Shown: positions 59,728 through 61,545 of the stretch, piece after piece
How the letters are laid out: every line of letters starts with the position of its first letter
How positions within the stretch are numbered: position 1 is the first letter of the stretch
Sequence record: PQ249395
Origin: Escherichia phage Pu-Krd-SF1
Reading direction: 5' to 3' (one strand)
Length of the DNA stretch: 64,000 nucleotides
Translations under genes and position numbers: made by a program
Notes under the pieces: generated by a model
The model's database searches: none
What the model was told of the DNA's origin: nothing
What the model saw: only the letters and a program-made list of their open reading frames with translations

Positions 59728-61545
59728 ATGATTAAGAATGAAATTAAAATTCTGAGCGATATTGAACATATCAAAAAGCGTAGCGGCATGTATATTGGCT
59801 CTTCTGCTAATGAAATGCATGAGCGCTTTCTGTTTGGTAAATGGGAAAGTGTTCAGTATGTACCTGGTCTTGTTAAGCTTATTGATGAAATTATCGATAA
59901 CTCAGTAGATGAAGGTATTCGTACTAAGTTTAAATTCGCAAATAAAATTAATGTTACTATTAAAAACAATCAAGTAACAGTTGAAGATAACGGTCGCGGT
60001 ATTCCACAGGCGATGGTTAAAACACCTACCGGTGAAGAAATTCCTGGTCCTGTTGCTGCATGGACTATTCCAAAAGCAGGTGGTAACTTCGGTGATGATA
60101 AAGAACGCGTCACTGGCGGTATGAATGGTGTTGGTTCTAGTTTGACAAACATTTTTTCTGTGATGTTTGTTGGTGAAACTGGCGATGGTCAAAATAATAT
60201 TGTAGTTCGTTGTTCAAACGGCATGGAAAATAAATCATGGGAAGATATTCCTGGAAAATGGAAAGGAACCCGTGTTACTTTCATTCCTGATTTTATGTCA
60301 TTTGAAACTAATGAGTTGTCCCAAGTTTATCTTGACATTACACTAGATCGTCTCCAGACACTTGCTGTTGTTTATCCTGATATTCAATTTACCTTTAATG
60401 GTAAAAAGGTTCAGGGCAATTTTAAGAAATATGCACGACAGTATGATGAACATGCTATCGTTCAAGAACAAGAAAACTGTTCTATTGCGGTTTGTCGTTC
60501 GCCGGATGGTTTTCGTCAATTAACTTATGTGAATAACATTCACACTAAGAATGGTGGCCATCACATTGACTGTGTTATGGATGATATTTGTGAAGACCTT
60601 ATTCCACAAATCAAACGTAAGTTCAAAATTGATGTAACTAAAGCGCGTGTCAAAGAATGTTTGACTATCGTTATGTTTGTTCGTGATATGAAAAACATGC
60701 GATTTGATTCTCAAACTAAAGAGCGTTTGACTTCTCCATTTGGTGAAATTCGTGGTCATATTCAGCTTGATGCTAAAAAGATTTCACGTGCTATTTTAAA
60801 TAATGAAGCAATTTTAATGCCAATTATTGAAGCTGCCTTGGCTCGTAAATTGGCGGCAGAAAAAGCAGCAGAAACTAAAGCAGCTAAAAAGGTTTCTAAA
60901 GCTAAGGTTCATAAACATATTAAAGCGAATCTTTGTGGTAAAGATGCTGACACTACTCTTTTCTTGACTGAGGGTGATTCGGCTATTGGATATCTTATTG
61001 ATGTTCGTGATAAAGAACTTCATGGTGGTTATCCATTGCGTGGTAAAGTTCTTAACAGTTGGGGTATGTCATATGCTGATATGCTTAAAAACAAAGAACT
61101 GTTTGATATTTGCGCAATCACTGGATTAGTTCTTGGTGAAAAGGCTGAAAACTTGAATTATCATAATATTGCTATTATGACCGATGCTGACCATGATGGT
61201 CTAGGAAGCATTTATCCTTCTCTGCTCGGATTTTTTAGTAATTGGCCAGAACTGTTTGAACAAGGAAGAATTCGCTTTGTCAAAACTCCTGTAATCATCG
61301 CTCAGGTCGGTAAAAAACAAGAATGGTTTTATACAGTCACTGAATATGAGAGTGCCAAAGATGCTCTACCTAAACATAGCATCCGTTATATTAAGGGACT
61401 TGGCTCTTTGGAAAAATCTGAATATCGTGAGATGATTCAAAATCCAGTATATGATGTTGTTAAACTTCCTGAGAATTGGAAAGAGCTTTTTGAAATGCTC
61501 ATGGGAGATAATGCTGACCTTCGTAAAGAATGGATGAGACAGTAG
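59728..61545 (+). CDS. 39: DNA topoisomerase II large subunit gp39 (GyrB-like), single uninterrupted ORF
   Basis: ATG 59728 with GAGGATAA RBS; 605 aa; ATPase and Toprim regions in one frame. Confidence 0.93.
   Translation: MIKNEIKILSDIEHIKKRSGMYIGSSANEMHERFLFGKWESVQYVPGLVKLIDEIIDNSVDEGIRTKFKFANKINVTIKNNQVTVEDNGRGIPQAMVKTPTGEEIPGPVAAWTIPKAGGNFGDDKERVTGGMNGVGSSLTNIFSVMFVGETGDGQNNIVVRCSNGMENKSWEDIPGKWKGTRVTFIPDFMSFETNELSQVYLDITLDRLQTLAVVYPDIQFTFNGKKVQGNFKKYARQYDEHAIVQEQENCSIAVCRSPDGFRQLTYVNNIHTKNGGHHIDCVMDDICEDLIPQIKRKFKIDVTKARVKECLTIVMFVRDMKNMRFDSQTKERLTSPFGEIRGHIQLDAKKISRAILNNEAILMPIIEAALARKLAAEKAAETKAAKKVSKAKVHKHIKANLCGKDADTTLFLTEGDSAIGYLIDVRDKELHGGYPLRGKVLNSWGMSYADMLKNKELFDICAITGLVLGEKAENLNYHNIAIMTDADHDGLGSIYPSLLGFFSNWPELFEQGRIRFVKTPVIIAQVGKKQEWFYTVTEYESAKDALPKHSIRYIKGLGSLEKSEYREMIQNPVYDVVKLPENWKELFEMLMGDNADLRKEWMRQ

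Follow-up and report, generated by a model that had tools for sequence, protein, structure and literature searches.

Unsplit gene 39 of Escherichia phage Pu-Krd-SF1: the parental form of the T-even topoisomerase II large subunit

The type II topoisomerase of phages T2 and T6 is built from two subunits, gp39 and gp52 (PMC11461880). A cryo-EM structure is available for T6 gp39, which relaxes DNA together with gp52 (PMC11461880, the paper behind PDB entry 8ylu and related structures). In the annotated T4 reference (NC_000866, positions 1–7000), the order is gene 39 (5328–3778), a mobA fragment, 60.1 and gene 60 (2990–2458), the last of these joined around a 50-nt bypass at 2852–2803. The mobA gene is a pseudogene in this reference, but is intact in T4T. 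The T4 insertion of approximately 70 amino acids in TOPRIM hangs outside the domain and affects activity little (PMC11461880). The element associated with the interruption has been described in several respects (bioRxiv 10.1101/2022.08.31.505936). (i) A MobA element of approximately 1.1 kb deletes 64 nt and puts in a recoded segment, homR, and a translational bypass. (ii) It brings an in-frame C-terminal extension (CTE) and N-terminal extension (NTE), and homR shows 67–81% identity. (iii) Its ends lie at amino acid ~473 and at D490/G491 in RB14 numbering. (iv) The MobA nick site lies within the homR-equivalent region of T2, and the bypass shields invaded genomes. (v) Genomes with a 'parental' Topo2L are 96–99% identical to cassette-bearing relatives and have neither the split open reading frame (ORF) nor MobA.

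The DNA analysed here, referred to as the window, is a stretch of 64,000 nt from Escherichia phage Pu-Krd-SF1 (PQ249395). The gene 39 locus comprises the following features.

59718..59722, plus strand: GAGGA Shine–Dalgarno sequence, read from the sequence, 5–10 nt 5′ of ATG 59728.
59728..61545, plus strand: unsplit gene 39 ('60plus39'), the large ATPase/TOPRIM subunit of T-even topoisomerase II, assigned from the ORF, Pfam, alignment to T4 and T2, and PDB match.
61600..61803, plus strand: rIIA.1, 67 aa, the next downstream gene (Pfam T4_RIIA1, 1.4e-33).
61814..63991, plus strand: rIIA, 725 aa, downstream neighbour, collinear with T4 12–2189.

The listed ORF occupies 59725..61545 on the plus strand and opens at GTG; from ATG 59728 it runs for 605 codons to a TAG stop. 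The ATG is preferred to GTG 59725 as the start because of the GAGGA sequence upstream, and the N-terminus that it yields, MIKNEIK, is that of T4 and T2 gp39. The spacer between gene 39 and rIIA.1 measures 54 nt, equal in length to the spacer after T4 gene 60. The ORF listing thus agrees with an earlier sequence-only reading, which had proposed a single 605-codon gene 39 at 59728–61545 followed by rIIA.1 and rIIA; the coordinates, the Pfam match of rIIA.1 and the collinearity of rIIA all bear this out. A scan of 59300–61900 for promoters and terminators returned no excess of sites over shuffled sequences. Two sites in this interval are consensus matches only: a GGCCTTCGGGCC hairpin at 59662–59673 followed by T-rich sequence (59659–59683 in all), directly 3′ of the 39.1 stop, and a promoter-like TTTACT-17-(TG)TATAAT at 61546–61574, between the gene 39 stop and rIIA.1.

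The product is a B-type (GyrB/ParE-like) subunit of a type IIA topoisomerase in the unsplit form of T-even gp39, as both its domains and its collinearity show. An N-terminal GHKL ATPase domain is recognized by Pfam as HATPase_c at residues 47–149 (2e-09, 38.3 bits against a cutoff of 26.4). The transducer domain DNA_gyraseB follows at residues 245–384 (9.5e-14), and the translation places the QTK loop, SQTKERL, at 328–334. TOPRIM_C covers residues 519–605 (3.3e-07). The TOPRIM motifs EGDSA (415–419, with the catalytic glutamate) and DADHD (486–490, the DxDxD motif) are encoded by the same ORF and lie in one chain. In T4, by contrast, the cassette separates EGDSA from DxDxD and the two motifs reside on different polypeptides. 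The best PDB match is 8ylu_C with related entries (E = 0, residues 1–605), and the next best is an artificially fused T4 gp39–gp60 construct. A single chain carries the whole GyrB/ParE-like subunit, GHKL ATPase, transducer and TOPRIM alike. By homology with T2 and T6, it is expected to combine with gp52 into a two-subunit topoisomerase II of the A2B2 type, in which a gp52 dimer would receive its ATPase gate and TOPRIM metal site from this chain; gene 52 lies beyond the 64-kb window. Expression of gp39, its enzymatic activity and its partnership with gp52 are likewise predicted from homology.

Alignment to T4 locates the difference between the two genomes precisely. Residues 1–473 correspond to T4 gp39 1–473 (463 of 473 identical, 98%, blastp), and residues 472–605 to T4 gp60 27–160 (126 of 134 identical, 94%, E 8e-94), with identity to gp60 of approximately 97% over 47–160. 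At the DNA level, blastn pairs window 59396–61145 with T4 5661–3911 and window 61210–64000 with T4 2793–3. By the blastn breakpoints, codon reading and alignment, 64 window nt (61146–61209) stand in place of 1117 nt of T4. Two features of this junction are relevant.

61146..61209, plus strand: 64-nt 'parental' segment, codons ~474–494 (ENLNYHNIAIMTDADHDGLGS), defined by blastn breakpoints and codon-level reading; T4 has the 1117-nt MobA/bypass cassette there.
61195..61203, plus strand: equivalent of the T4 take-off/landing site, GAT GGT CTA (Asp490 Gly491 Leu492); a stop codon, a coding gap and a matched GGA pair are all lacking.

The 1117-nt block of T4 holds a gp39 C-terminal extension of ~43 aa, mobA/60.1, a gp60 N-terminal extension of ~30 aa together with recoded homR, and the 50-nt gap with its GGA/UAG take-off; all of these are absent from the window. 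The identity of homR measured here, ~68%, is consistent with the published 67–81%. At the hop site, the window reads GAT GGT CTA GGA AGC ATT TAT, in frame and without a stop, whereas in T4 GAT GGA is followed by the 50-nt gap, which begins with TAG and ends in GGA, and after it comes TTA GGT TCT ATT TAT. A pattern search for the T4 50-nt coding gap, with up to 3 mismatches allowed, gave 0 matches within the 64-kb window, and blastn-short with the 1117-nt T4 cassette as query found only chance 13–15-mers in it. In tblastn searches of the window, intact MobA of T4T detected nothing in or near gene 39; the only matches were distant HNH relatives at 8475–8678 and 30110–30337. The cassette-encoded CTE and NTE of T4 (gp39 474–516 and gp60 1–26) had no counterpart in the window gp39 by blastp. 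The proposal that gene 60, the mobA insertion and a hop element are all missing is thus upheld across the 64 kb. The same reading had expected the C-terminal ~160 residues to match gp60. The match itself is clear, but its length is shorter than proposed: only ~130 residues are gp60-derived, because the first ~30 of T4 gp60, like the last ~43 of T4 gp39, are encoded by the cassette and absent here. A further local difference falls at codons 326–328 (60703–60711), which read FDS in the window and in T2 but LIR in the T4 reference. The LIR triplet reflects two changes in NC_000866 that lie 9 nt from each other immediately ahead of the QTK loop, one base deleted and one inserted; the cause is a compensated frameshift or else an error in old sequencing.

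In T2 (AP018813), the corresponding position is occupied by a gene 39 of 605 aa. All 605 positions align without a gap and 6 amino acids differ, at F70, C256, G343, V389, T538 and R604, which confirms the T2-like fused state that had been proposed; across the junction (61130–61230), 99 of 101 nt are identical. In RB14 and RB32, ~97% identical to the window in DNA, the gene is annotated '60plus39'. The gp39 group of T2, T6, RB14 and RB32 shares with the window both the length of 605 aa and the order 39.1 - 39 - rIIA.1 - rIIA, and differs from it by point substitutions only. The 3.2-kb gene 39 region is 100% identical in five deposited phages, Pu-Krd-SF3 to SF7, in which the gene is annotated as 'DNA topoisomerase II large subunit'. 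These phages are recorded on E. coli B, and the source given for SF5 is piglet faeces from Russia. The region is 97–98.5% identical in hundreds of other records, and coverage is contiguous in 485 of 561 matching records.

The unsplit state is widely distributed. With a 165-nt probe that bridges the insertion site, an uninterrupted junction was found in 971 phage records, comprising T4-like phages of Escherichia, Klebsiella, Acinetobacter and other hosts, and the T4 MobA cassette occurs in only 43 records of the phage database. The unsplit gene 39 is the ancestral and majority ('parental') state of Tequatrovirus and T4-like phages, and T4 is the exception. An unsplit, T2-like gene had been presented as a departure from the T4 reference; the state holds, but the rarity that this implied does not, given 971 uninterrupted records against 43 with the cassette and the '60plus39' annotation of RB14 and RB32. 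Compared with the 'parental Topo2L' class of Manning & Atkins, the window has the same breakpoints and the same 64-nt segment, and no difference was found. The gene is thus a textbook MobA-naive allele of this already described class. The feature is already known: an ordinary, majority and documented polymorphism.

Other differences between the window and T4 were mapped as insertions and deletions over T4 1–41000. Genes mobB, segA, segF, dexA.1 and dam have T4 copies in this range without a counterpart in the window. The DNA adenine methyltransferase gene dam (T4 16846–17625) is missing at 47622–47661, where 40 nt stand against 919 nt in T4; T4 Dam as a tblastn query matched nowhere in the 64 kb. 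Sites 27169–27192 and 41627–41791 are collinear with T4 but have no counterpart of mobB (861-nt gap) and segA (694-nt gap), respectively. Most of the sites examined differ from T4 in their homing endonucleases. Where genes 46 and 46.1 adjoin, the window has an insertion of 857 nt compared with T4, and this insertion holds a Mob-type HNH homing endonuclease of 284 aa at 30026–30880 (phrog_655, 7.8e-45; 40% to the MobA N-terminus; no Pfam match). Another Mob-type HNH ORF, of 283 aa (48175–49026; phrog_655, 9e-34), lies between gene 56 and soc, an interval that in T4 holds the GIY-YIG gene segF; the flanking genes 56 and soc are 76% and 47% identical to T4 in amino acids. The nrdD gene (20002–21819) is one uninterrupted ORF of 605 aa matched end to end by Pfam NRDD (1.4e-170), whereas the T4 annotation joins nrdD across the I-TevII intron. 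Directly 3′ of nrdD, a GIY-YIG/NUMOD3 endonuclease ORF (21812–22642) occupies the place of the T4 HNH gene mobC. An apparently split HNH endonuclease at 8475–9254, with ORFs of 75 aa (8475–8702; 57% to MobA 1–63) and 147 aa (8811–9254), probably represents a mobD-like gene in decay; an nrdC.11-like ORF lies downstream of it. Between 39.2 and 39.1, an extra 125-aa ORF (59016–59393; phrog_622, of unknown function) corresponds to RB32ORF005c in RB14/RB32; 371 nt at this ORF are absent from T4.

The window carries a T4-type b-gt (40423–41475) that is 96% identical to T4 b-gt in amino acids, and an a-gt at 27184–28383. In the phage collection, b-gt is found in only 27 records, mostly T4 isolates. 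It occurs together with the cassette in T4 strains, RB55 and RB59. Nine of the 27 lack the cassette when judged against the complete list of cassette records: Pu-Krd-SF3 to SF7, HMD-9, 236Ecol005PP, PTE-Eco15 and FL12. Conversely, ~20 cassette-bearing phages have no T4-type b-gt, for example HY01, HY03, vB_EcoM_112, G50, PD112 and JEP6. The phage database shows no linkage between the two markers. Their independent segregation is what would be expected of a homing element and a locus that lies ~20 kb from it. From gene 39 to rIIA, the window differs from T4 at 186 and from T2 at 174 of 4595 sites, and is thus equidistant from both. The suggestion that the phage is otherwise T4-like, on the strength of b-gt, and yet unsplit is therefore correct as to the presence of b-gt, but the contrast carries little weight. 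The lineage of Pu-Krd-SF3 to SF7, HMD-9 and 236Ecol005PP is one of few non-T4 carriers of b-gt. As a long shot, this Pu-Krd-SF/HMD-9/236Ecol005PP lineage might unite T4-type alpha-gt and beta-gt with a gene 39 that was never invaded, or, less likely, its unsplit allele might have reverted without trace from the split gene of a T4-like ancestor. If the former were true, the lineage would offer, in phages whose DNA modification is of T4 type, a natural recipient in which homing of the MobA/bypass cassette could be followed.

The stretch 59728–61545 is almost certainly an intact, MobA-naive 'parental' T-even gene 39 that is translated collinearly, the split and bypass of T4 being due to the MobA cassette. 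No evidence against this reading was found. The T4 39/60 split and the 50-nt ribosomal bypass are products of the ~1.1-kb MobA homing-endonuclease cassette, which never entered the window allele or left no trace in it; for that reason, translation of gene 39 is expected to be ordinary and collinear, and recoding unnecessary. A different history, in which an ancestor bore the cassette, as T4 does, and the gene later became whole again through either precise loss ('hit and run') or recombination with a phage lacking MobA, is very improbable. Ancestry in the T4 lineage could be suggested by the rare b-gt marker, present in the window and otherwise found mostly in T4-lineage records among the 27, and loss of the endonuclease has been reported in some clades. 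The published hit-and-run cases, however, keep the CTE and NTE (bioRxiv 10.1101/2022.08.31.505936), whereas the window contains neither remnants of these extensions nor fragments of the cassette, and over the 64-nt segment it has the parental sequence of T2 type rather than homR. A T4 background with a T2-like patch, the pattern of reversion or co-conversion, is absent from binned SNP counts against T4 and T2. These counts run at equal distance from both phages from gene 39 to rIIA, and the only outlier bin is the one that holds the homR of T4 itself. No support was seen for reversion from a split ancestor, although a traceless gene conversion is formally possible.

It is hardly credible that the cassette exists in the real phage and was collapsed or lost in assembly, or that the gene is an artefact of annotation. 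No specific evidence points to an assembly error. The identical sequence is present in five independently deposited Pu-Krd-SF records, the same structure recurs at 97–98.5% identity in hundreds of further records, RB14, RB32 and T2 among them, and the reading frame of gene 39 is perfectly preserved. The intact, MobA-naive gene remains the preferred reading.

This reading matters little in itself, being the correct interpretation of a well-documented polymorphism. For annotation, 'full-length topoisomerase II large subunit' is the appropriate name, and recoding is not to be expected. The uninterrupted T2-type target sequence of MobA is present at 61130–61230, the nick site being placed from the literature. 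Because T2 has almost the same target region, the window allele is predicted to be a MobA recipient; its sensitivity would follow from this likeness to the T2 site. In a mixed infection with a MobA-positive phage, it would act as a recipient for MobA homing, and Pu-Krd-SF1 may thus be regarded as potentially sensitive to MobA.
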